Origin: Eubacteriales bacterium
GTDB taxonomy: Bacteria; Bacillota; Clostridia; Oscillospirales; JAAYXM01
DNA: 43,943 nt
Assembly: GCA_045544695.1 (NCBI GenBank)
Contig: JAZPZP010000022.1
Coordinates: 1 to 43,943 of the forward strand
Direction of reading: 5' to 3'
Part shown: piece by piece, positions 1-21,489 of the stretch
Layout of the letters: every line of letters begins with the position of its first letter
Position numbering within the stretch: position 1 is the first letter of the stretch
Position numbers and translations under genes: made by a program
The notes under the pieces: model-generated
Told to the model about the DNA's origin: nothing
What the model saw: only the letters and a program-made list of their open reading frames with translations
The model's database searches: none

Positions 1-3000
1 AAGGTCTACAAACTTCTTGCCACTATCGCCTCCCGGTGTCACTGTCGGATCTTCCGGTTTCGGATCCTCTTCCTTCGGTTCTTCCGGCTTCGGCTCATCG
101 GAGCCGCCGCCTCCGCCACCGCCGCCGACATCGCCCGGATCACTATCTCCCGGAATTGTGTCGCCGCTTGCAACATTACCGCCGGTTGAGTTTGCTACAT
201 TGATGTCAACATAAAGAGTACTTTCAAGTAATCCGTCGCTTACAACGAATGATACGAAGTTGTCTCCACGGTCTGCTGAGGTCGGTGTCCAGCTAAAGGT
301 CTGGGTTACTTCATCAAATACCATTCCTTCTGCCGAATCCTTCATCTTGAAGTTGAGCGGATTTCCTGTCTGGCTGGTTGCTGTTACTCTGAAGCTTACA
401 GTGTTACCTGCTTCAACCGACTGTTCAGGAACCGCATCAACAATAGGACTTTTCTCATCATATGTCGGGAGCGGAATTTCAAAGCTCATTCCCTCGCCCA
501 TCAAATAATTAAAGCCCTTTGTTTCATCAGTTTCGTCAACATAACTGAGTGTTGTGGTTGTCATACCTACATCGAGTATAACCCTTGTCGGATCATTTGC
601 ATCAACAGTTGCATTTTCAATCTTATAAGTACTGTTTGCCTCTCCATTACTTCTGCTTCCGTTGTCAATATAGATATACTGACCGATTATCTTATTAACA
701 TCAAAGTCACCGTTCATCTTAACCGTGATATTGTTGTCAAGCGTGAGTTCACGGGTAAAGTCAACAACTGTTCCCGTATACTTTGCTGTACCGGTCATTC
801 CTGCAAGGAATGTACCGTCGTTCATATAGGTGTAAATCGGAGCACCGTTCTGAACTCCCGCTTCATAAGTTACAACACCTACAAATGCGCGCATATCGAA
901 TCTGTTATCAACCGTGTAGGTTACGGTATTGTTTGTAGCATAGATGATATAGTCCTCTCTTCCACCTTCAAGAGTTACCTTGACTGCGCGAGATGCATCA
1001 TTCTTGCCTTCGTAACCGGACTTGATTACAACCGGAACTTCCTCTACCGAGAGAATATACGGATTATTCTTATACGGCTGAATTACAGTTGTATAGAGTG
1101 AGTCTAAATCCTTACCCTTCCGACGAGCCATAATCTGCTTGATGAGAGCAGGCGAGTTATTTGACTTTGGTGGACGCGTGTCACCATAAGCAAACTCGGT
1201 AATCTCATTATCTGTATTGAGCATAGTAAGCTTCATATGTAAATCCGGATCCCCCGGAAGCACATTGAAGTAGTCGCGGATTTTAAAGTCGGCGCTTATT
1301 GTCGGCGCGGTCGGATTTGCAGCTCTGTAGATATTCTTAAGCCAGGTAAATCCAACAGGAGATCTGAGTTTTGAGTGCCAATCATTTTCCCACATTTCAT
1401 CTTCGCCGTACGGAATGTCCGGACCTGCGTAAGAAGACTCAACCGGGTTGCCGAATTTATCAGTCGTCATTTTCTGCTGCTCGACCATTGGAATATCAAC
1501 TTCGATTTCATCGCCCTGAGCGTGGAAGTTATAGATATGGTCGTTGCCACCTTTTACACGGAAGAAGTCTACAGCATAGCTTACATCGTCATTATAATCG
1601 ACCTCAACGACTGTTCTTCGGAAGATTTCTGTAGAATCGTAAAGCTCAGGAACATCAACATCCATAACCTTTACCTTGCCCGAATCGTCAAAGTGATACG
1701 GGTCGCCGGAAATAACGCCGTTTTCTGATGCTTCGGTATATGTCTCGCCCTTCTTCTCAACAACGAACACCGTGTTATGAGCCATCGGAGTTGAACTCCA
1801 TGTGATACGGTTACAGTTAACCGACTTATAATCAGGGTTACCGAGGTCCGGCGCCATATTGATACCATATGCAACGAGACCTAAATTGAGGTGACCTGCA
1901 TGACCGTGACCACCGTTGCGGCCGTAATACATCCAGTAGCTTCGCTGAGTATCAAGTGGGTTGTTTGCAACCTTCCACTCACCGTCGCGGGTAATCATAA
2001 GTCCGAATCCGCCAAGGTTTGTGCTTTCAAGCTCAAGACCCTGACCCTTTTCATCAATTACCGCCTGAACCTCATCCTGAATTGCAAATGGGTCACGACT
2101 TGCAACGCCGTAAGACAATCCCGAAAGGTCGCCGTCACAAAGGAGATAAATCATACGCGCGATATTATCCTCACGTATGCCAGCACCCCAGGCTGATGTA
2201 AAGAGGCCTAAGTTTGCTATGTTATCGGGTTTTGCAAAGTAGCCGGTGTCACCGATATTCGGCGTGTAACGGCTTGCCATTGTAAGCTCAGTTGTTGCGA
2301 AAATCATTCTGCGATATTTCGGATGGTTGTAAATATCAGCTCCTGCATAGGTATCTTTGTAACCGTCAAGCACACCTGCGATGTTACCCATGGAGTTAAT
2401 CCAACCGAGGTTATAGCCCGGGGCCGCTTCGTTACCCCAACCGTCACGGTCAACATTGGTTACAAGTGATGAGTTTACATTACCCTTTTCGCCAACAATA
2501 CCTCCACCATTCGAGTTTTTACTCGACTCAAAAATCCAGTCAATCCATTCTTTGCTTTCAGGCATCGTATCCAAAACAACACCGATAGTTGCCATAACGT
2601 GCTGCGGATAACCGAAGTTGCCCCAAATTTCCGTCGTGTGGATACCCTGTCGTATTGCACGGAGAAGTCCGTTATCTGAGTTAAAGCGAATTAAATCAGC
2701 ACTTGTCTTCGGATTTTCAAGGTTATACTTCTTAGCCTTTTCTGAAAGAATCTGAATTACCTTAGGATTCTCCATTGCCGGCCAGAGAGCATCGTAAGAA
2801 TCTGCAAGACGAACCGCCAAGCCATAGTCTGCGATACATCCAAGTACAGTTCCCTTACCTGAACCGCCTGACGATGAAACATACACATATCGCCATTCAG
2901 GATTAAGGTGCATTGTCGGATAAATATCCGCAACGCGGTCTAAAATTACCGCACCGGCGATACCGTATTTCTCCTCACCTGTGTACTTGTATGCTTCTGA

Positions 3001-6000
3001 AAGCGAGAAGAGCGCTTTATTTATAGGACCGCCGGAGTTGTAGTTCCAAGCTGATGTCCACAATGCGTGGTTATATCTCGGAATGTAGCAGTGAACGATT
3101 TTAACTCTGTCGTTCGGAGCAGGAAGATACTTGCCCGAATCATAGCCGAAGCCGTTATCAACACCCCAGTTTGGCTCTTCCTCTGTGTTCTTTTCCGGGT
3201 GAAGAACATTAGTTAAATAACCTGCCTCGCCATTGGCAACAAGTTCTGCATTCCTTTGCTTTGAAAGTTCTTCACTCCAGAGGCCGTGTTCATCCAGACC
3301 GAGCTCGTAGTACTTGCCGAAGTCATTTGATGGGAAGTATCTACGGCATTCTGAACACTGAACTTTCCAAGCTGTCTCAAGTGGATTTATAATAAATCCG
3401 CCACTGACCGCACCGAGGTCGGTCTCGCAATAATAGCAATAGTTGTAATTCGGGTCGCCGTACATCTGCACGCCACGCGGAAGCTCATTCGATGTGATGA
3501 GGTTGCAGATTTCTTCATATTTGTCCACATATAAATCAGCTGCTTTTACCGCATTGTTAAGCGTCGGCGCTGCCCAATCATACTTATCAAAGTTTGCGCG
3601 CATAACTTCAAGAGTCTCGTCTGTCGTTCTTGTTCGACGCGACTTGAGTGTACCCGCAATAACATCGAATGTAGTACTCTTGTTAATTCCCTGAAGCGTT
3701 GCATTAACTGTAATTGTTGCAAAGCCATTTGCGTGTGCGGTAACAGTACCATCTGCACTTACCGTTGCAATCTCCTCATTCGACGAAGAATAAGTATATG
3801 TTGCCTGTTCCGCTTCTGCCGGAACACTCGGAGTTGTGTTTAAAATTCCGCAAGAAGCTCCGAGTGATAAGACATTATTCGTCTTGCCGTTATCAAGCTT
3901 GGATGTCAAGCTATCAAGCGGTTTAGCACCCGATAAATGAAGTGTATTGAGATAGAGCGTTCCTGCCTTACCGGATGTCGGAGCAGGGTCTACCTCGGTA
4001 CACTTAATAATAAAATAATACTCTGTCTGACCGGTAAGTGGGAGAAGACCTAAGTCAACATACTGTAAAGTTCCGAGAGCTGATGACTGAACATCGTAAA
4101 TTGCAGCTGCCGGAGTAGTTGCCATCTTATCCTCAATAGCATCAGGGCTGATGTTGCCCGGGAGGATATAAACCTCTGCCTTCTTAGCATTTGCGCTACC
4201 GCTGTATGTCATTGTACCTGCATAAAGACCCGGAGTAGGTGCTTTAAGTTTAAATACAACATACTGGCCTGCTTTTTCATTTAAAATCTGAAGTGCGCCA
4301 TAGAAAGAGGATACCCAGTTGGTATTCTTTGAGCTATGTTTAACATAAACCCAGTTTGGGTTCTTGCTTTCATTGTAATCCGTAAGAGTTGACGCCATTT
4401 CGCCCGAGCGTGAAAGTCCGCTTATAAAGTCGTAGGTAACGCTGTGTTCAATACCCGGCTGAATCGGGTTTTCAATCTCGGTTAAAACCTCAACTTCTTG
4501 TGAAGCTGTCTTTGTAACGGTATCGAGTGTTACGCTTACGGAAATTAAAGAGTTGCCGCCGGCAACACCGAGCATTGCTCCGGTTGCCTCATCAATTGCA
4601 ACAGCAGCGGTATTACTTGATGAATAAGTAATAGTAGCGCCCGATAAATCGGCATCTGTTCCATCATCCAGCTTACCTGTAACGGTAGCAGTTGCCGCGC
4701 CACCTATTGCAAGCGCTTTAACTACATCAAGCGAAATGCTTTCAAGCTTTGGAATAACGGGAGCCGGCTCATTTCCGTCAAATATGAGCTTGGTTGCGGT
4801 AAGAGTTGCATAACCGTGAGTTGCATCGTCTCCAACACCGTCTGCCTGGAGAACTAAAACATACTCGGTATCTTTGCGAAGCGCAACTTCGCCAAGTGTT
4901 GCGATATTTTCGCCCTCTGCATAAGCAAATGTTCCTGCCGGAGTTGATGATTTAACTAAAGCTTCAATATCCGAAAGCTTTGTATCACCTGCGAAAACAA
5001 AAATCTTGCCATTTTTTGCACCAATATGGTTTTTATATGCAAGCTTAAACTGATATGCGCCCTCATTTCCGCTCTTAAACTTAATCGCACTCCATGCGCC
5101 GTCATCCATACCGATAAAATTAACGGCACCTGCACGAGTTGTCGAGCGACCCGCGAGATTCATATAGTTTCCAAAATATGTCCAACGGGCATTTTTATCA
5201 GCATTATAATCTGTGAGTAAATCAAGATTTTCGCCATCATCTGCAAGGCCTGTCATAAGGTTGATTTCATTCGATGTGCTCTCACCGCCGTAGCTTACAC
5301 AAACTATGTCGCGTGATACAGTCTTTGTAACGCCATCGAGTGTAACGGTTGCCTTGAGTGTTGCACTGCCGTCACTTACTGCTACGAGAGTTCCATCATC
5401 AATAATCTTTAATATGTTCTCATTTGAACTCTTTAAGATAACCTCTGCAAGATTTTTCGCAGAAAGGTCAGCTGAATCACCGTTTTCAAGTGTTGCTGTG
5501 ACAATAGTAGTTGCCGGAGCATTCTTTGAAATGGTATCACTTGATACGATGAGGTTAACCTGGTCAAGCGGAGACGGAGCTTCGCCTATGAGTTCTAAGT
5601 TAGTTAAACTCATACCTGCGTATCCGGTACCCTGTGAGTTTGTATTATACTTAGTCGGAATGAATACAAGAAGCATTTCTGCATCTTCATTATACATATC
5701 AATCTGACCGAGCTTTATTGTGTCGCCTACTACGCCGTCATAGTTGACTATACCAAGCGGCACAGATTCTTTAGCTTTTGCCGCAATCTGCTCTTTCGGA
5801 GTATTTGCCGGAAGAGCATAAATCTTCATCTGGAGCGCACCCACATGGTTTGCCCACTTGAAGTATCCGGTATATCTACCCTGTTTCGGAGCCTTTACAG
5901 TAAACGCGATATATGTATTTTCACTCTTTGTATTCGAGTTAAATCGCATAGCAAGGCCATAGAAGCCCTCACAGCTTATAGCGCCATTCATTGAATGGAA

Positions 6001-7983
6001 CTTCCAATTTGCATTCTTCGCTTCGTTATACTCTGTCAAAAGATCGGTTCTTTCATCGTAAAGACCTGCAACGAAGTCGTATTTTGTATTATTTACCTTA
6101 CCTGCATAAGGAAGAGTATGAATAGCAGTTAAATCAATCGTTTTCTTTAATGTAACTTTACCCAAAGTAACCTTAACTTCAATTGACACAAGACCCTTAT
6201 CAAGTGCGGTAACAACACCGTCTGTCGAAACCTCTGCAGTTTCCGGTGTCTTGCTTGTGTATTCAATTGTTGCAGCACTTAAATCTGCTGCTTCTCCATT
6301 CGCGAGCTTACCTGTAACCGAAAGCTTTGTGGTCTCACCCTTTTCGATTGTATCAAATGAGCTTGAAATGTTAATTTCGGAAAGAGCCTCCGGATTTGCG
6401 CCGTTAAATGATACCGAACGGAAGAACATACCCTGACTGCCGATACCACCGTTTGCCATTTCTTCACTATCGGTATTTAATACCTCCGATGTGATAACAA
6501 GGACTTTCTCCTTGCCCGCATCCTTTGCCTTGACGATATATTCGCCAAGCTTAATGGTTGTGTTTTCATCAGCCTTTTCAACGTTATCAACCATTACGCC
6601 GCTAAAATGCTGACCTGCCTTGCGATTGTTCACCTCGTAAAGCGCAGTTGCATTTGCATCGCAGATATATAAGTCTACCTGCGGAGCAGTGTAGTAATTT
6701 CTATGAGTAAATTCAACGGAATACTTACCTGGCTCGGTCGGGAGCTTAATTGTAAATGTCGCAACATTACGGAAGTCAGGACGACCCATAGAAAGGCGCA
6801 TCCAGCCGTCAAATGCGCATGTGTTGTTCGCATCATACCAATGCTGTCCATTGTATTTCCAGTTCGGGTTGGTTTTCGCATTGTAATTTGCAAATGCACT
6901 CGGCTTTGTGTCCTTGGCAGCAGCAGTGCCGTCCTCAAAGCCATAGCGGAAGTCATATGTTACAGAAGCGTTAACACCCGCCCAATCATTAGTGTCTACA
7001 AGAACTCTGTTAACACAATTAAACTCAATTGTATCGGTCTTGGTAACACCGTCAAGTGTAACGGAGGCCTCTACTTTTCCTGTTCCCTCTGCCTTATATG
7101 TAACCTGATTACCGTCTAAAGTAATAAAGTCGGGAGTAAGGTTCTTGTAAGATATATCCTGTGTTGTAATATTCGCGGTTGCGTTATCGGTCATCTTGCC
7201 AGAAACAGACAACTCCGCAGTATTGTCAACCGGGTTTAAGTCGGTCTTATTTGCCGTAACTTCAATTGATGCAAGAGACGGTGGGGCTGATCCGTCAAAG
7301 ATTATGCTATAAAGATAGGAACCGTAAAGACCTACATTTGTTCCATTTGTTCCGCTGGAATCAGCAGAAGCTATCATAGCAAACTTAACTTCCTTGCCTG
7401 CCATTTCCTCGGTAACCTCAAAAGTGCCAATACGCCAAGTCTGGTCAACGCCCTTTGTACCGCTGCCAATGTAATTTGCACTTGTGGTTACAAGAGATTC
7501 CTTTGTTACAGTTGCATCTTTATCAAAAATAAATGTATCGTACTTATTCGTACCGTATGGCACTTCAGTCTTTACCTTAACAGCATACTTACCCGGAGTC
7601 TGCGGCAAGATAATCTGAAGTGTAAAGAATTGATCTCTTGTTTCCGCACGGTAGAGAAGTCTGTTCCATGTATCAACCGCGAGGTAATTACTATATGTAA
7701 CATAGTCACCCTTTGAATACCAGTTCGGGTTGCCCGAATTTGTGGTACTGTGGTTAATCTTTGTACCGTCGGTAAAAACCTTGTTGAGAGCATCAAACGC
7801 TCTTAAGTCCGGCGCTTTACCTACAGCGTCAACACGCGGGAAAGCATAAGTTGTCGTTGCTGCACTGCCCGCCCACTCTGCTGCCTGACCAAACACAAAA
7901 AGGCCTGTCGGAATAAAACCTACAAGCATTACAAGTGTTATGATAAGCGCTATAATTTTTTTGGATTTAAAAACAGTTTTCAT
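1..7983 (-). CDS. Giant secreted multidomain protein, partial (at least 2661 aa in window; C-terminus runs off the left edge). Order: signal peptide, 5x [unassigned module + Big_2 Ig-like domain], heparinase II/III-like polysaccharide-lyase region, cadherin-like domain, Gly/Pro/Glu/Lys linker
   Basis: Absent from the ORF track because no stop codon lies inside the window. ATG at 7983-7981, with GGAGG at 7990-7994 (6-nt spacer). I read the reverse complement through the whole region. The frame was verified codon by codon at 7983-7861, 5580-5551, 3438-3346, 1920-1882 and 130-1, always with codons ending on multiples of 3. All minus-strand track ORFs in 1-7983 sit in one other frame. Translation starts MKTVFKSKKIIALIITLVMLVGFIPTGLFVFGQAAEW and contains GRNGGHGHAGHLNLGLVAYGINMAPDLGNPDY...MAHNTVFV. 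Confidence 0.9.
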   Translation of the reverse strand, partial: MKTVFKSKKIIALIITLVMLVGFIPTGLFVFGQAAEWAGSAATTTYAFPRVDAVGKAPDLRAFDALNKVFTDGTKINHSTTNSGNPNWYSKGDYVTYSNYLAVDTWNRLLYRAETRDQFFTLQIILPQTPGKYAVKVKTEVPYGTNKYDTFIFDKDATVTKESLVTTSANYIGSGTKGVDQTWRIGTFEVTEEMAGKEVKFAMIASADSSGTNGTNVGLYGSYLYSIIFDGSAPPSLASIEVTANKTDLNPVDNTAELSVSGKMTDNATANITTQDISYKNLTPDFITLDGNQVTYKAEGTGKVEASVTLDGVTKTDTIEFNCVNRVLVDTNDWAGVNASVTYDFRYGFEDGTAAAKDTKPSAFANYNAKTNPNWKYNGQHWYDANNTCAFDGWMRLSMGRPDFRNVATFTIKLPTEPGKYSVEFTHRNYYTAPQVDLYICDANATALYEVNNRKAGQHFSGVMVDNVEKADENTTIKLGEYIVKAKDAGKEKVLVITSEVLNTDSEEMANGGIGSQGMFFRSVSFNGANPEALSEINISSSFDTIEKGETTKLSVTGKLANGEAADLSAATIEYTSKTPETAEVSTDGVVTALDKGLVSIEVKVTLGKVTLKKTIDLTAIHTLPYAGKVNNTKYDFVAGLYDERTDLLTEYNEAKNANWKFHSMNGAISCEGFYGLAMRFNSNTKSENTYIAFTVKAPKQGRYTGYFKWANHVGALQMKIYALPANTPKEQIAAKAKESVPLGIVNYDGVVGDTIKLGQIDMYNEDAEMLLVFIPTKYNTNSQGTGYAGMSLTNLELIGEAPSPLDQVNLIVSSDTISKNAPATTIVTATLENGDSADLSAKNLAEVILKSSNENILKIIDDGTLVAVSDGSATLKATVTLDGVTKTVSRDIVCVSYGGESTSNEINLMTGLADDGENLDLLTDYNADKNARWTYFGNYMNLAGRSTTRAGAVNFIGMDDGAWSAIKFKSGNEGAYQFKLAYKNHIGAKNGKIFVFAGDTKLSDIEALVKSSTPAGTFAYAEGENIATLGEVALRKDTEYVLVLQADGVGDDATHGYATLTATKLIFDGNEPAPVIPKLESISLDVVKALAIGGAATATVTGKLDDGTDADLSGATITYSSSNTAAVAIDEATGAMLGVAGGNSLISVSVTLDTVTKTASQEVEVLTEIENPIQPGIEHSVTYDFISGLSRSGEMASTLTDYNESKNPNWVYVKHSSKNTNWVSSFYGALQILNEKAGQYVVFKLKAPTPGLYAGTMTYSGSANAKKAEVYILPGNISPDAIEDKMATTPAAAIYDVQSSALGTLQYVDLGLLPLTGQTEYYFIIKCTEVDPAPTSGKAGTLYLNTLHLSGAKPLDSLTSKLDNGKTNNVLSLGASCGILNTTPSVPAEAEQATYTYSSSNEEIATVSADGTVTAHANGFATITVNATLQGINKSTTFDVIAGTLKSRRTRTTDETLEVMRANFDKYDWAAPTLNNAVKAADLYVDKYEEICNLITSNELPRGVQMYGDPNYNYCYYCETDLGAVSGGFIINPLETAWKVQCSECRRYFPSNDFGKYYELGLDEHGLWSEELSKQRNAELVANGEAGYLTNVLHPEKNTEEEPNWGVDNGFGYDSGKYLPAPNDRVKIVHCYIPRYNHALWTSAWNYNSGGPINKALFSLSEAYKYTGEEKYGIAGAVILDRVADIYPTMHLNPEWRYVYVSSSGGSGKGTVLGCIADYGLAVRLADSYDALWPAMENPKVIQILSEKAKKYNLENPKTSADLIRFNSDNGLLRAIRQGIHTTEIWGNFGYPQHVMATIGVVLDTMPESKEWIDWIFESSKNSNGGGIVGEKGNVNSSLVTNVDRDGWGNEAAPGYNLGWINSMGNIAGVLDGYKDTYAGADIYNHPKYRRMIFATTELTMASRYTPNIGDTGYFAKPDNIANLGLFTSAWGAGIREDNIARMIYLLCDGDLSGLSYGVASRDPFAIQDEVQAVIDEKGQGLELESTNLGGFGLMITRDGEWKVANNPLDTQRSYWMYYGRNGGHGHAGHLNLGLVAYGINMAPDLGNPDYKSVNCNRITWSSTPMAHNTVFVVEKKGETYTEASENGVISGDPYHFDDSGKVKVMDVDVPELYDSTEIFRRTVVEVDYNDDVSYAVDFFRVKGGNDHIYNFHAQGDEIEVDIPMVEQQKMTTDKFGNPVESSYAGPDIPYGEDEMWENDWHSKLRSPVGFTWLKNIYRAANPTAPTISADFKIRDYFNVLPGDPDLHMKLTMLNTDNEITEFAYGDTRPPKSNNSPALIKQIMARRKGKDLDSLYTTVIQPYKNNPYILSVEEVPVVIKSGYEGKNDASRAVKVTLEGGREDYIIYATNNTVTYTVDNRFDMRAFVGVVTYEAGVQNGAPIYTYMNDGTFLAGMTGTAKYTGTVVDFTRELTLDNNITVKMNGDFDVNKIIGQYIYIDNGSRSNGEANSTYKIENATVDANDPTRVILDVGMTTTTLSYVDETDETKGFNYLMGEGMSFEIPLPTYDEKSPIVDAVPEQSVEAGNTVSFRVTATSQTGNPLNFKMKDSAEGMVFDEVTQTFSWTPTSADRGDNFVSFVVSDGLLESTLYVDINVANSTGGNVASGDTIPGDSDPGDVGGGGGGGGSDEPKPEEPKEEDPKPEDPTVTPGGDSGKKFVDL
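196..447 (-). other. Cadherin-like / dystroglycan-type 'putative Ig' domain near the C-terminal end
   Basis: PIVDAVPEQSVEAGNTVSFRVTATSQTGNPLNFKMKDSAEGMVFDEVTQTFSWTPTSADRGDNFVSFVVSDG follows the typical F-x-W-x-P...G-x-x-x-V-x-V-x-V-S-D-G pattern. It is followed by eight Gly codons (103-126) and SDEPKPEEPKEEDPKPEDP. Confidence 0.5.
446..3651 (-). other. Heparinase II/III-like (alpha/alpha-toroid + beta-sandwich) polysaccharide-lyase region of the giant protein
   Basis: GGFGLMITRDGEW...GRNGGHGHAGHLNLGLVAYGINMAPDLGNPDY...STPMAHNTVFVVEKKGE (nt about 1768-1960) matches the conserved GHGH-x-D/H...D-x-G...AHNT core of the heparinase II/III family as I remember it. An upstream helical region starts at DETLEVMRANFDKYDWAAPTLNNAVKAADLY. 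No HMM search was possible. Confidence 0.65.
3652..7881 (-). repeat. Five tandem protein-level units, each an unassigned ~180-210-aa module followed by a ~85-90-aa Big_2-like Ig domain
   Basis: Approximate borders (nt): module1 7285-7881 / Big_2 7020-7284; module2 6391-7019 / Big_2 6121-6390; module3 5581-6120 / Big_2 5296-5580; module4 4750-5295 / Big_2 4483-4749; module5 3925-4482 / Big_2 3652-3924. Recurrent module signatures: FANYNAKTNPNWKY / LTEYNEAKNANWKF / LTDYNADKNARWTY / LTDYNESKNPNWVY (degenerate NSGNPNWYS in module 1). A second signature is F-x-h-K-x-P-x-x-G-x-Y (FTIKLPTEPGKYSV, FTVKAPKQGRYTG, FKLKAPTPGLYAG). Big_2-like stretches look like TTKLSVTGKLANGEAADLSAATIEYTSKTPETAEVSTDGVVTALDKGLVSIEVKV. 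The units are divergent at DNA level. Confidence 0.7.
7882..7983 (-). other. Sec-type signal peptide of the giant protein (residues 1-34, by eye)
   Basis: Lys-rich n-region (MKTVFKSKK), hydrophobic core IIALIITLVMLVGFIPTGLFVF, and a small-residue site GQA|AEW. No predictor was run. Confidence 0.6.
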
Positions 7984-8116
7984 ATTGCCCCTCCATTTCT
8001 TTTTGAAAGCTATGTTAAATTACCCCTTATGCTAAGCATATCAAAATATTTTTTTATTTACTTTGCATATTCTATTTTTTTATTGATGAATTTCATTGAA
8101 TAAGCCTCTTTTTTAT

Positions 8117-8144
8117 ATTATATCATAAATACAAATATAATCAA
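8117..8144 (-). promoter_or_regulatory. SigA-type promoter of the giant gene
   Basis: Minus strand reads TTGATT (8144-8139), 16-nt spacer, TGaTATAAT (extended -10; TATAAT at 8122-8117). It lies about 125 nt upstream of ATG 7983. Confidence 0.55.
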
Positions 8145-8178
8145 CAAAAAACCGCCTCTCAAAACTTGAAAGACGGTT
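8145..8178 (-). terminator. Intrinsic terminator-like hairpin between carB and the giant-gene promoter
   Basis: Arms 8150-8157 / 8171-8178. The minus-sense RNA AACCGUCU...AGGCGGUU pairs over 8 bp including one G-U, followed by UUUU. In plus sense the same stem has a C-A mismatch but an 8-U tail, so it could act in both directions. Confidence 0.5.
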
Positions 8179-8321
8179 TTTTTTAAATTTATTTTCTTAG
8201 GTTTAGTCCTCTCAGGGTGCCGCAAAACGCTTGCGGCACCGTCAAGAGGCTTGAGAAAGGAAAATAAAAGAGTGGGATAGCAAAATAAAATAATGAAACA
8301 AAAATGCAACTTTTTAACTCT
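8145..8321 (-). ncRNA. Candidate ~175-nt structured non-coding transcript, or leader of the giant gene; family unknown
   Basis: Bounded by the promoter at 8328-8356 and the terminator at 8145-8178. It contains an ~81-nt extended hairpin (8188-8268): a perfect 10-bp core GGTGCCGCAA/TTGCGGCACC (8216-8225 / 8231-8240, loop AACGC), then CCTCT/AGAGG (8208-8212 / 8245-8249), then an 11-bp AU stem with one bulge (8188-8198 / 8258-8268). There is no ATG with an RBS inside. Confidence 0.3.
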
Positions 8322-8327
8322 GTTAAA

Positions 8328-8356
8328 AATATACCACAATCCTCCAAAAATTGCAA
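8328..8356 (-). promoter_or_regulatory. SigA-type promoter candidate for the non-coding unit
   Basis: Minus strand reads TTGCAA (8356-8351), 17-nt spacer, TGgTATATT (TATATT at 8333-8328). Confidence 0.4.
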
Positions 8357-8440
8357 TATCTTTTTGGAAAATTGGGACGATATTTTTATTTTAAGGGAAG
8401 ATGCTTCAAAATAATACTGATTTTAGCAAATTAGAACACA

Positions 8441-18204: not shown

Positions 18205-19086
18205 TTATTCTTTCATAATACGTCTGAACTGCGACGGCGGAATACCGTAACTCTTTTTAAATACACGGCTGAAGTAATTTGAATCAGAAAAACCGCAGGT
18301 TTCACAAATTTCTACAAGTGATGTATTTGTGTCGCGCAAAAGCTCTGCCGCGTGATTGAGCCTTAAGTTCATAATATACTCGCTAAACGTCTTCCCTGTA
18401 ACCTGCTTGAAAATGTAAGAAAAGGTTGAGGTCGACATCATAGCAATTCTGCAAACCTCTTCGAGATATATTTTCTCGTTATAATGCCGATTGATATATA
18501 AAATCGCTTTATCTATTGCATCCCTGTATTTTTCAAAAAGCTCATCCGCTTCGTATTCGGCGTTCTCAGCATATTCCGAGGCAATTGTTGCAAGAAGCTT
18601 TAAAAGATCAGCCTTTATAAATAAATACGAATGCTTGCGATATGAATTGTATTCGCGCAAAAGGTCTGAAAATAGCTTATCAATGAAGTGCGACTTCTCA
18701 TCACTTACCCTGCAGAGACTCTTTACCATATTCTGACTTAAGAAAAACGGCTCTAAGTATGCAATGTCAAAAAGTCCGTCGCGATCCTCATATTGCAGTG
18801 CTTCATTGATGAAGCGTTCGGAAAATTCACAACAAATCAACGAGGAATTATTATCATCACATTCAACTCTGTGTTCTACAAACGGTGGAATGATGCAAAT
18901 TCCATATTGGAAGCAGTCATATTTGTAGCCGTTTAAATACTGGCGGCATTTTCCCTTTCGCACATACCAGATTTGAAAATACTCGTGCGAATGGTCTTTC
19001 TGCTTAAAAGGACCCTTGTTTTCGAAAATCTTTACCGGGAACTTGGTATTCATATTTTTATCGGTCGTGTAGAAAGCCTTTTCCAT
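18205..19086 (-). CDS. AraC family transcriptional regulator (cupin N-domain + HTH_18)
   Basis: 293 aa from ATG 19086 (MEKAFYTTDK...). That ATG shares one base with the TAA of the upstream gene (TAATG). C-terminal AraC signature SLVEICETCGFSDSNYFSRVFKKSYGIPPSQFR. The track start at 19137 would overlap the upstream CDS by 52 nt. Confidence 0.85.
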   Translation of the reverse strand: MEKAFYTTDKNMNTKFPVKIFENKGPFKQKDHSHEYFQIWYVRKGKCRQYLNGYKYDCFQYGICIIPPFVEHRVECDDNNSSLICCEFSERFINEALQYEDRDGLFDIAYLEPFFLSQNMVKSLCRVSDEKSHFIDKLFSDLLREYNSYRKHSYLFIKADLLKLLATIASEYAENAEYEADELFEKYRDAIDKAILYINRHYNEKIYLEEVCRIAMMSTSTFSYIFKQVTGKTFSEYIMNLRLNHAAELLRDTNTSLVEICETCGFSDSNYFSRVFKKSYGIPPSQFRRIMKE

Positions 19087-20081
19087 TACCAATGCTCCTT
19101 CATAACGGATACAAAGTGCTCCATAAATCGCGCACATCCGTCTCTGTTTAAATGCCCCTGATCGGCAAAATCGCTGTCCCAGAGTATTTCTGACGACGAT
19201 GTTGCAAAGTCAATAAACGGTATTTGAAATTCATCCGCAATCTCCTGCACCGCGCCTGTTATTTTATCATAGTATTCAATTCGGTTAAAAATAGTTGGCG
19301 GAAGCGGTGCAATAGTCAAGGCCACTTCGATATCATTTTCCTGTGCCAGAGCTATAAGTTTCTTTAAATACTCAATCTGACGCGGATGGAATTCTTCATA
19401 TTCTTTGGAAAATGGGTGATTTTCAGGCGCGACCATCTCACTTGTAATGGAATTCCGCGTAGAATAAAAGCCGTTTCCTCGATAGTTGTCTGCTCGTTCC
19501 TCTTCCTCTTCGTTATCGGACGACGACATAATGCTCTCTATTCTTCCGAATGGGTTTAAATAGTTGTTGTAAAAATCTAAACAGTCATTGAATTTCAGCG
19601 TGTTCCAAAGCATAGAAAAAGCATTGGTTGACGGCTTTAGTTCCTTTAAGATAGTTACCGCCTGCTCCTTTGAGTATTCCTCAAGCAGAACCTTGAAATA
19701 AACATCATAAATCAAATACTTTGGCTTCTGCGTTTTCAGCACTTCGCGGAGCAGATAGTACGCGGTATCCGGCTGTTGGAGTGCCGTTCCCAAATTGAAC
19801 ATCTCCATATCAAACTCGTATTTAACCCACGCGGGATCATAACTGCACATTGCATGACTCGAACCTAAAACCAAAACATCAACGCTGTTCTCGGGCAAAG
19901 CATAAAAGTCAGATATCTGATAGCTTGTTATCCTCTGCGTTACATTTCGGTCATTATAGTGAGCCGCAAGAGCAATTGCCGACACTTGCGCTGCCGCATA
20001 AAAAACGATGAGCGCAAGCAGGAACGCGAGTATTCTTTTTGTATATATTTTAAAATTGGAAGTAAATAAACGCGGTTTCAT
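19086..20081 (-). CDS. Membrane-anchored SGNH/DltD-like protein, partner of the MBOAT acyltransferase
   Basis: 331 aa. N-terminal TM ILAFLLALIVFYAAAQ, block-I-like VLVLGSSHAM, and a C-terminal D-x-x-H-like FADQGHLNRDG. Its ATG at 20081 lies 32 nt inside the end of the MBOAT gene. Confidence 0.6.
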   Translation of the reverse strand: MKPRLFTSNFKIYTKRILAFLLALIVFYAAAQVSAIALAAHYNDRNVTQRITSYQISDFYALPENSVDVLVLGSSHAMCSYDPAWVKYEFDMEMFNLGTALQQPDTAYYLLREVLKTQKPKYLIYDVYFKVLLEEYSKEQAVTILKELKPSTNAFSMLWNTLKFNDCLDFYNNYLNPFGRIESIMSSSDNEEEEERADNYRGNGFYSTRNSITSEMVAPENHPFSKEYEEFHPRQIEYLKKLIALAQENDIEVALTIAPLPPTIFNRIEYYDKITGAVQEIADEFQIPFIDFATSSSEILWDSDFADQGHLNRDGCARFMEHFVSVMKEHW

Positions 20082-21489
20082 TTCCTGTCACTCCAAACAT
20101 CATTATAAGGCCAAAAAGCACAAGATAGCAGATATATCTGACCGTTCTGTGCCCATAGAAAAGGCGTGTTAAGGCATTTTCCTTGCGTGAAACAAACGAA
20201 ATTATACAGAAAAGAAGCGCAAGAAGTGCCGAGCTTACAATTCTGTATGTACCAATACTTTCAAAAAAACCTGCGAAGTCAAGCGGGAAAATATGGCTTA
20301 TGATATAAATCGCATCCGAAAGGCTGTTTGCGCGGAAGAATATCCATGAAAAGCAAATAAGCATAAAAGTTACGGCAACCTGAAGAATTTTATGCAATAC
20401 CACGCACTTATCGCCAAAAACTCGCTCATTTACCTTCTTACGCAAGTCTTTGGTACAGGTGCTGATGCTTGTATAAACACCGTTGATAAGCCCCCATATT
20501 ACAAAGGTCCACTCGGCACCGTGCCACAAACCACTCAGTGCAAAAGTTGTCATATTGTTTAAAATATATCTCGCCTTACTGCAACGACTTCCGCCAAGAG
20601 GAATGTAGACATAATCGCGGAACCACGAGGAGAGCGATATGTGCCATCTGCGCCAAAACTCACCGGTTGTTTTTGATAAATACGGGCGATTGAAGTTTTG
20701 CATAAGGTTAAAGCCCATAATTTTTGCAGAGCCGACTGCGATATCCGAATATCCGGAAAAGTCGCCGTAAATCTGAAGCGCAAAGGCTACCGTTGCCGCA
20801 ATAAACGCAGCACCCGAATGCTCCCCCGTGTTGTTGTAAACCTCATTTACAAGGAGCGCCAGCCTGTCGGCAATTACAATTTTTTTGAATAATCCCCATA
20901 AAATTACGCGCAAGCCCAAAATTGCCCTTGCGATATCAAATCTCTTCTGCTCTGCAAACTGCGGAAGAAGATTATCTGAGCGCTCAATAGGGCCGGCAAC
21001 AAGCTGCGGAAAGAACGAAACAAAGAGCGCAAAAATTCCGAAATGGCGCTCAACCTTAGTCGTTCCCTTGTAAACATCAATAGTATAGCTGAGCGTCTGG
21101 AATGTAAAAAACGAAATTCCGACAGGTAGCAGGATATCAAATGTCGGCAAATTTATTGACGAATTAAAAAGATCAAGAGCAGAATTGATATTCTCCGTAA
21201 CAAAGCCGAGATATTTGTATACGAACAGTACTCCGAAGCTCAAAACAAGGTCAACCGTAAGTATGATTTTCCTTTTGAGTTTGTCTTTTTCTTTGTCAAT
21301 TAAAATCGCGGCAAAAAAGTTAATCGCGGTACAGAAAAGTATAAGCAAAGCGTATTCAGCGCGCCACGACATATAAAAATAATAGCTCGCCGCAAGGAGA
21401 AGAATCCAGCGAAAGCGCGGTGCAATTATAAAATACAGCAATGCAACGAGCGGCAAGAATATAAGGTACTCAAATGAATTAAAAATCAA
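20050..21489 (-). CDS. MBOAT family O-acyltransferase (AlgI/PatA/DltB-like)
   Basis: 479 aa, polytopic. Typical N-terminus (M)IFNSFEYLIFLPL and a conserved His region EFWRRWHISLSSWFRDYVYIPLGG. TTG start at 21489. Confidence 0.88.
   Translation of the reverse strand: MIFNSFEYLIFLPLVALLYFIIAPRFRWILLLAASYYFYMSWRAEYALLILFCTAINFFAAILIDKEKDKLKRKIILTVDLVLSFGVLFVYKYLGFVTENINSALDLFNSSINLPTFDILLPVGISFFTFQTLSYTIDVYKGTTKVERHFGIFALFVSFFPQLVAGPIERSDNLLPQFAEQKRFDIARAILGLRVILWGLFKKIVIADRLALLVNEVYNNTGEHSGAAFIAATVAFALQIYGDFSGYSDIAVGSAKIMGFNLMQNFNRPYLSKTTGEFWRRWHISLSSWFRDYVYIPLGGSRCSKARYILNNMTTFALSGLWHGAEWTFVIWGLINGVYTSISTCTKDLRKKVNERVFGDKCVVLHKILQVAVTFMLICFSWIFFRANSLSDAIYIISHIFPLDFAGFFESIGTYRIVSSALLALLFCIISFVSRKENALTRLFYGHRTVRYICYLVLFGLIMMFGVTGNETAFIYFQF

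Follow-up and report, generated by a model that had tools for sequence, protein, structure and literature searches.

Contig JAZPZP010000022.1 (assembly GCA_045544695.1) of a Eubacteriales bacterium (Clostridia; Oscillospirales) carries in its first 7,983 nucleotides a giant reverse-strand gene. With a probability of roughly 0.6, we read its product as a secreted polysaccharide lyase (PL) that would be attached to the cell wall by S-layer homology (SLH) domains and be built around a core of the heparinase II/III-like superfamily. The stretch of 43,943 nucleotides that was analyzed (positions 1 to 43,943 of the contig) is called the window. The gene is truncated only by the contig end; its visible product has a mass of 289.0 kDa and a pI of 4.7, and the complete protein would come to roughly 2,840 amino acids (aa).

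Direct translation of the reverse complement of positions 1-7983 yielded 2661 codons with 0 stops, and the remaining five frames across the same positions contained 79-272 stops each. The start at ATG 7983 is unambiguous, because an in-frame stop lies 11 codons upstream and no other start codon occurs in between. The original prediction of one giant frame on this strand had been made from the letters alone, and its start codon, ribosome-binding site and promoter were all found again at the places it had given. It had also supposed that the frame was missing from the track of open reading frames (ORFs) for want of a stop inside the window. This agrees with the rule of the ORF lister, which leaves out ORFs running off the source, so that the track shows only plus-strand fragments of 101-138 aa for positions 1-7983. 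The signals around the start are:

7882..7983, reverse strand: start codon and signal-peptide-like N-terminus (aa 1-34; MKTVFKSKK, a hydrophobic stretch, then GQA/AEW), read from the sequence
7990..7994, reverse strand: GGAGG ribosome-binding site, 6 nt before the ATG
8117..8144, reverse strand: sigma-70-type promoter-like site, TTGATT-16 nt-TG-TATAAT (10 of 12 consensus matches, extended -10 TG)

The promoter-like site is a consensus match only. The N-terminus, which is lysine-rich at its outset, looks like the signal peptide that had been predicted; since it contains no Cys, it is not that of a lipoprotein. Behind it the protein is arranged as follows (immunoglobulin, Ig; hidden Markov model, HMM; AlphaFold2, AF2):

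6994..7881, reverse strand: module 1 (aa 35-330), X domain plus Big_2-type Ig domain (module alignment, HMM)
6115..6993, reverse strand: module 2 (aa 331-623), X domain plus Big-like Ig domain (Pfam, alignment, HMM; the module modeled by AF2)
5293..6114, reverse strand: module 3 (aa 624-897), X domain plus Big_2 (alignment, HMM)
4468..5292, reverse strand: module 4 (aa 898-1172), X domain plus Big_2 (alignment, HMM)
3664..4467, reverse strand: module 5 (aa 1173-1440), X domain plus Big_2 (Pfam, 37.4 bits; alignment, HMM)
484..3660, reverse strand: catalytic core (aa 1442-2500, 1059 aa; homology search, profile, AF2, Foldseek)
3346..3438, reverse strand: Cys4 zinc-ribbon-like insertion in the N-terminal part of the core (C1516, C1519, C1543, C1546)
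229..447, reverse strand: He_PIG/cadherin-like Ig domain (aa 2513-2585; Pfam, 25.0 bits, cut-off 24)
19..192, reverse strand: Gly- and Pro/Glu-rich linker (aa 2598-2655; composition)
1..18, reverse strand: KKFVDL, apparently the first residues of the first SLH domain (aa 2656-2661; alignment to L001 and P0001, see below)

The giant frame is a real functional gene under purifying selection, and neither a chimera nor a pseudogene, because it has a syntenic and colinear ortholog, ratios of nonsynonymous to synonymous substitution (dN/dS) well below 1 in all segments, and no internal repeats. The ortholog (L002) belongs to the metagenome-assembled genome (MAG) JAZNOR01 ('Eubacteriales bacterium', SGB_2944), which was found by scanning species-representative genomes with the core; its contig carries carB and then L002, i.e., the same upstream neighbor. 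The DNA of the upstream 5.4 kb is 84% identical between the window and JAZNOR01, and the two proteins align over 2604 residues with 87% aa identity. Constraint is strongest in the catalytic core, whose dN/dS is 0.057; the signal peptide, the five modules and the C-terminal part have values of 0.10-0.25. An internal repeat search revealed no long DNA repeats inside the gene. Neither an in-frame stop or frameshift nor a chimera, the events that the original prediction had named as fatal to it, was found. A long frame produced by faulty assembly, or a pseudogene fragment, could be suspected from the contig end inside the gene and from the orthologous and paralogous JAZNOR01 contigs, which likewise end in or near the C-terminal region. 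Such ends are, however, better accounted for by the He_PIG, linker and SLH region that the paralogs have in common, and an independently assembled colinear gene, the dN/dS values and the stop-free frame make this explanation exceedingly improbable.

A segment of about 1.4 kb (positions ~4744-6183, aa ~601-1080, modules 3-4) is 97-100% identical to the JAZNOR01 ortholog at the DNA level in most 60-codon blocks, with two blocks at about 90%. The rest of the giant gene is 67-93% identical and the carA-carB region 84%; dS is 0.10 in the segment versus about 1.0. This looks like a recent exchange of binding modules between species. On either flank the identity returns to about 70-88%, so the contig does not switch genomes there; together with dN/dS and the lack of long repeats, this identity profile led to the rejection of a chimera or pseudogene.

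The core consists of a helical toroid (about aa 1455-1980), an antiparallel beta-sandwich (about aa 1988-2376) and an extra C-terminal beta domain (about aa 2381-2500). Its AF2 model (pLDDT 87.6, pTM 0.87) has helices to about core residue 540 and strands thereafter. The best 42 matches of this model in the PDB by Foldseek were all uronate lyases of the toroid plus beta-sandwich type or dermatan-sulfate epimerase, at 9-15% identity; the lyases among them were from PL17, PL40, PL39, PL15, PL12, PL21 and PL33, with GAGase II and further chondroitin and hyaluronate lyases. By AF2 and Foldseek, the core thus has the (alpha/alpha)n toroid followed by an antiparallel beta-sandwich that defines the fold of the heparinase II/III-like superfamily. 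A core family profile built from 37 sequences and searched against the PDB sequences matched the PL40 ulvan lyase Uly1040 best (E 1.4e-25, 92.5 bits, profile positions 339-913), followed by PL17 alginate lyases (E down to 1e-18) and PL12 heparinase III (E 4e-6), with PL39 and PL15 weaker than PL12. The lyase core claimed in the original prediction is supported by the Pfam score just under threshold that is reported below and, more strongly, by these matches and the conserved catalytic residues.

When 1.84 billion cluster representatives were searched exhaustively with phmmer, the core had 1498 relatives at E<=1e-3, of which 610 reached E<=1e-30. The 150 best, most of which align over the full 1059 aa, show 36-62% identity and lie in proteins of 765-4110 aa. 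Word-indexed homolog searches gave three matches with the whole protein and 128 with the core alone. Named members are labeled 'heparinase II/III family protein', 'S-layer homology domain-containing' or 'Ig-like domain-containing' and come from MAGs of Oscillospiraceae/Ruminococcaceae, Paenibacillus, actinomycetes, Armatimonadia and Planctomycetes. Two traits separate the family from its characterized relatives, namely the Cys4 zinc-ribbon-like insertion (all four Cys together in 28 of 37 members) and the extra beta domain of ~120 aa after the sandwich. A homolog from Paenibacillus hodogayensis (P0185) has a CBM_35 domain inserted between the toroid and the beta-sandwich, and one from a Paenibacillus MAG (L006) also has an insert at that place; many core matches cover ~53% of the query in one BLAST segment, probably because of such inserts.

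Mutagenesis of Uly1040 (PL40, Alteromonas macleodii, PDB 9vtk) has shown that Asn245, Tyr305, Asp358, His485 and His487 are essential (PMC12915356). Asn245 neutralizes the carboxylate, Tyr305 is the catalytic acid, and His485 is the catalytic base, activated by Asp358 and the Mn-binding His487 (PMC12915356). All five are aligned and conserved in the family of the window core:

2617..2619, reverse strand: Asn1789 (core N348), predicted carboxylate neutralizer, corresponding to Uly1040 Asn245 (37 of 37 sequences)
2413..2415, reverse strand: Tyr1857 (core Y416), predicted catalytic acid, corresponding to Uly1040 Tyr305 (37 of 37)
2248..2250, reverse strand: Asp1912 (core D471), predicted activator of the catalytic His, corresponding to Uly1040 Asp358 (36 of 37)
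1900..1908, reverse strand: His2026-Gly-His2028 (core H585, H587), predicted base and metal ligand, corresponding to Uly1040 His485 (37 of 37) and His487 (36 of 37)

The correspondence to Uly1040 was taken from the printed profile-sequence alignment, and conservation was counted over the 37 family sequences. H2069 is likewise kept in 36 of them, and D2046 is Asp in 31 and Glu in four more. The spacing of these two residues is that expected of the remaining metal ligands in the superfamily, as in heparinase II and Alg17c. As judged by sequence conservation, the core thus holds the catalytic Asn, Tyr and His and the HxH...D...H metal site of the superfamily. Because the essential residues of Uly1040 align and are conserved, with D2046 and H2069 as probable further ligands, the core most likely cleaves a polysaccharide containing uronic acid by metal-assisted His/Tyr beta-elimination. 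In the proposed mechanism, Asn1789 would neutralize the C6 carboxylate, and His2026, activated via Asp1912 and a metal held by His2028, would abstract H5; Asp2046 and His2069 are likely further metal ligands, and Tyr1857 would protonate the leaving glycosidic oxygen.

Several observations weigh against assigning the core to the lyases. Literature searches aimed at a characterized member of the core family found none, and no family member bears a name more specific than a family or domain label. The Pfam model Hepar_II_III_C (PF07940) scored 22.5 bits with the whole protein and 23.8 bits with the core alone, just missing its cut-off of 24, which is passed by the homologs P0001 (39.6 bits) and P0185 (38.2 bits). 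The identity of the core to solved lyases is only about 9-15%. A near-invariant Asp at core position 589 is Gly in the window protein, its ortholog and one paralog; this was not read as inactivating, since the corresponding segment of Uly1040 (HGHASGMD) likewise shows no Asp there, and the register may be inexact. Partners in uronate catabolism (unsaturated glucuronyl hydrolase, KduI/KduD) were present neither in the window nor at the seven homolog loci examined. Finally, the same catalytic triad occurs in dermatan-sulfate epimerase, so that residue conservation cannot tell a lyase from an epimerase.

The last point leads to a core of the same fold and His/Tyr machinery that performs another reaction, e.g., C5-epimerization of uronate or hydrolysis. 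Dermatan-sulfate epimerase has its His/Tyr/His set in common with heparinase II, Foldseek matched the core to human dermatan-sulfate epimerase 1 (6hzn) at E 3e-12, and at 10-15% identity the family is too far from any assayed enzyme for the type of reaction to be transferred safely. Every closer match by profile or fold is nevertheless a lyase (PL17, PL40, PL39, PL15, PL12, PL21, PL33), and the Asp-His-His-metal tetrad of the PL40 and PL39 lyases is conserved; a non-lyase reaction is accordingly considered unlikely, though not negligible, next to the assignment as a lyase.

Regarding the position of the core among the known PL families, Uly1040 aligns with ~15% identity and a Foldseek TM score of 0.50 (query-normalized). 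The window core is ~200 aa longer, carries the Cys4 insertion near the N-terminus and the additional C-terminal beta domain, and has Phe in place of Uly1040 Trp246. PL40 has been reported as a marine family, mostly of Bacteroidota, with Uly1040 as a two-domain enzyme of 97 kDa (PMC12915356), whereas the named members of the family of the window core are mostly from Clostridia, Paenibacillus and actinomycetes, often within SLH-anchored proteins of 2,000-4,000 aa. We do not place the core in PL40: the match requires the family profile and covers only the profile positions given above, the N- and C-terminal extra elements have no PL40 counterpart, and PL17 scores as well by fold. Nothing points to ulvan as the substrate.

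The (oligo)alginate lyases of PL17 (Alg17c 4nei/4ojz, 7bjt, 8bdd, 9irq) gave the best Foldseek E values (2.7e-25 to 7e-22; target-normalized TM 0.64-0.69), and the family profile matches their HxH...D...H metal/active-site segment, confined to ~140 residues. They show 13-15% identity, measure ~700-750 aa and contain neither the zinc ribbon nor the extra C-terminal domain. PL39 Dp0100 (6jp4/6jpn), PL15 (3a0o, 6lja), PL12 (heparinase III 4mmh, 5jmd), PL21 heparinase II (2fuq) and PL33 (8r6z) belong to the same two-domain fold class and match less well (Foldseek E from 1e-17 to 1e-11, profile E no better than 4e-6, 10-14% identity). Dp0100 comes from a Firmicute. According to the title of the PDB entries 6jp4/6jpn, it is a multi-domain alginate lyase of thermophilic origin. 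It has a His-Asp-His-Mn tetrad in common with Uly1040 (PMC12915356). With 10-15% identity and profile E values from 1e-18 to >1e-3 in the metal-site segment only, the core was placed in none of PL17, PL39, PL15, PL12, PL21 and PL33. It may belong to a CAZy family that is as yet unfounded or has no structure.

The original prediction had not been able to assign the protein to any described one. This stands in that the protein is assigned to no characterized enzyme, but it is not an orphan, as its core belongs to a populous and labeled family. An NCBIfam scan of the giant protein gave nothing meaningful, phmmer of the whole protein against the PDB sequences gave a marginal Ig match only, and literature searches on gellan lyase and on new PL families yielded nothing useful. 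A link to the 263-kDa gellan lyase precursor of Bacillus sp. GL1 is conceivable. The overall design of signal peptide, binding or spacer modules, catalytic domain and SLH anchor is familiar for Gram-positives. Among the multimodular enzymes with which Firmicutes degrade polysaccharides, either secreted or SLH-anchored, the xanthan lyase 6f2p and the xanthanase 6fhn of Paenibacillus likewise have tandem Ig-like/CBM-like beta-sandwich modules (CBM, carbohydrate-binding module) flanking the catalytic domain. Their catalytic domains (PL8 and GH9) are unrelated to the window core.

The five tandem modules span aa 35-1440, measure 268-296 aa each and are 20-33% identical to one another; they were delimited by motif-anchored MAFFT alignment and HMM, and a self-BLAST of the giant protein had detected no repeats. 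All five close with a motif of the type VTLDGVTKT. The Ig-like repeats expected from the first reading are real, with Big_2 (PF02368) scoring 42.4 bits against a cut-off of 22.8. The preceding X domain of ~185-200 aa has no Pfam match above threshold. Its HMM was run locally on 274 sequences, namely 267 collected proteins, six locus-derived ORFs and the ORF of the window itself. About 70 of them contain the domain, with one to five copies each, and the X domain is therefore a recurrent partner of the core. A word-indexed search with the X-domain alignment yielded no matches. In the AF2 model of module 2 (pLDDT 75.7), a beta-sandwich is followed by an Ig domain, with moderate confidence in the X domain; its best Foldseek match was the xanthanase 6fhn (E 8e-7), with a low TM score (0.25) that is largely driven by the Ig domain. 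An X-domain profile from 25 sequences gave weak matches to the C-terminal module of the xanthan lyase 6f2p (E 0.0019) and the CBM35 of Man5C, 2bgo (E 0.038). Pfam CBM_35 was the top recurrent weak match (3 of 25 members, best E 0.019), none of the matches to CBM models reached the curated threshold, and the CBM_35 of P0185 is a bona fide one. On these profile and model comparisons, we tentatively read the X domain as a diverged CBM6/35-like beta-sandwich module. The probable role of the five CBM35-like plus Big_2 modules is to attach to the substrate and to keep the core at a distance from the wall.

Because Ig-like and CBM-like modules make up over half of the giant protein, because the SLH/Big_2/He_PIG layout resembles surface adhesins and because the near-invariant Asp is lost in the window copy, the protein might also be a mainly non-catalytic adhesin or S-layer-associated scaffold whose lyase-like core only binds. 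It would then be hard to see why all five catalytic residues (Asn, Tyr, Asp and the two His) are kept and why the core, with the dN/dS given above, is more constrained than everything around it, and we give this option very little credence relative to a catalytically active lyase.

At its truncated end the window protein reads ...GKKFVDL, where the paralog L001 continues GKKFIDLGAHSWAEDAIYELVDAG. In the homolog P0001, the first of three Pfam SLH domains starts at residue 2865, and the sequence there is RFVDLGNHAWAADAINALAEEG. Among the 128 large proteins collected for the family (1800 aa or more), 87 have three C-terminal SLH domains (~178 residues). Since KKFVDL, the only part of such a domain before the contig end, aligns to these SLH starts and most of the large relatives end in three SLH domains, the missing C-terminus most likely consists of about 180 aa of a triple SLH anchor, which would keep the secreted enzyme on the cell wall. 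The surface location claimed originally fits with this. Exact 48-mer searches for an extension of the contig to the left found no match in metagenome or genome contigs. Three of the four JAZNOR01 paralog contigs (L001, L002, L004) also end inside the gene; L002 breaks off in the C-terminal linker region, like the window, and L001 just inside the first SLH domain. L002 and L001 are 80-94% identical over the last 300 nt versus 59-76% further upstream. This near-likeness of the paralogs in the He_PIG, linker and SLH region would explain the contig ends: the C-terminal sequence common to paralogs probably breaks the assemblies.

Upstream of the promoter-like site the giant gene is set apart from carA-carB by a hairpin that closes the carA-carB unit:

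8146..8182, reverse strand: terminator-like hairpin upstream of the promoter of the giant gene (17-pair stem, then a T run)

Between this hairpin (8182-8146) and another one right after carB (8473-8441) lie ~260 nt (8183-8440) with no listed ORF of at least 100 aa; an Rfam scan of the leader gave sub-threshold noise only (rli40, 22 bits versus a gathering score of 100). The remainder of the window is housekeeping and gives no clue to the substrate. It includes, from reading the translations, carAB, a Clp-type ATPase and LexA and, from Pfam, V-type ATPase subunits, a sugar ABC transporter, an MBOAT/DUF1574 pair, an AraC-family regulator, a GFO_IDH_MocA oxidoreductase and a sulfatase-family protein. 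In the pair (19086-21489, reverse strand), an MBOAT acyltransferase of 479 aa overlaps a DUF1574 protein of 331 aa; from the look of the translations, it resembles DltB/AlgI-type plus DltD/AlgJ-like systems for O-acylation of a surface polymer. The AraC-family regulator and the GFO_IDH_MocA oxidoreductase lie downstream of it.

The gene neighborhoods of the seven homologs provided no consistent substrate clue either. Short homologs of the core (~1000-1400 aa) in Tenggerimyces flavus (L011), Paenibacillus sp. J31TS4 (L009) and Actinopolymorpha alba (L007) adjoin paired GFO_IDH_MocA oxidoreductases and/or DegT/DnrJ/EryC1 aminotransferases, an association that could point to a polymer of amino sugars or uronate. 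The Tenggerimyces locus holds three tandem core copies. One Oscillospiraceae locus has genes of the PIG-L and amidohydrolase types. Two loci of Oscillospiraceae/Ruminococcaceae have FemAB genes 4-5 kb downstream, one of them also with a MurJ/Polysacc_synt flippase, a GlcNAc 2-epimerase and PAP2 upstream. JAZNOR01 encodes four core paralogs (L001-L004; 90, 67, 60 and 55% identity) with differing module sets, of which L003 is a complete version of 1265 aa without SLH domains and L004 has X domains after the core; three clustered family members occur in another MAG.

With the same chemistry, the enzyme might trim or remodel a polymer of its own envelope (an acidic secondary cell-wall polymer, one like teichuronic acid, or a capsule), as AlgL does with alginate. 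An SLH anchor would put it on the wall; the DegT/DnrJ/EryC1 proteins and paired GFO_IDH_MocA oxidoreductases beside the Actinopolymorpha, Tenggerimyces and Paenibacillus homologs are of enzyme types found in the biosynthesis of nucleotide amino sugars and uronates; FemAB, the MurJ-type flippase, GlcNAc 2-epimerase and PAP2 point the same way, as does the lack of catabolic partners at every locus examined. These links are loose, however, and not conserved between loci. The several divergent paralogs per genome, the one to five CBM-like modules per protein and the signs of module exchange between species count against a self-directed enzyme, as they are typical of foragers on exogenous glycans, and such a role appears improbable, if somewhat less so than a non-lyase reaction. 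Paralog numbers, clustered or tandem copies and varying counts of CBM-like modules favor foraging on an exogenous glycan.

More speculatively, and on balance doubtfully, the core may constitute a new PL family with a specificity outside PL12, PL15, PL17, PL21, PL33, PL39 and PL40, and the X domain a new CBM family; gut Oscillospiraceae would then deploy several giant SLH-anchored paralogs, swap binding modules between species and forage on an acidic glycan that has no assigned enzyme class.

As this gene shows, the largest and most niche-relevant gene on a contig can go unseen when the ORF track omits frames truncated at the end. The core family found here represents a large uncharacterized branch of heparinase II/III-like lyases, and the recombinant core is directly testable because its fold is well modeled and its candidate catalytic residues are clear. 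Identification of the substrate would probably allow a new lyase family to be founded, and possibly also one of binding modules. Giant wall-anchored enzymes for glycan degradation help to decide which polymers are usable by uncultured gut Clostridia.

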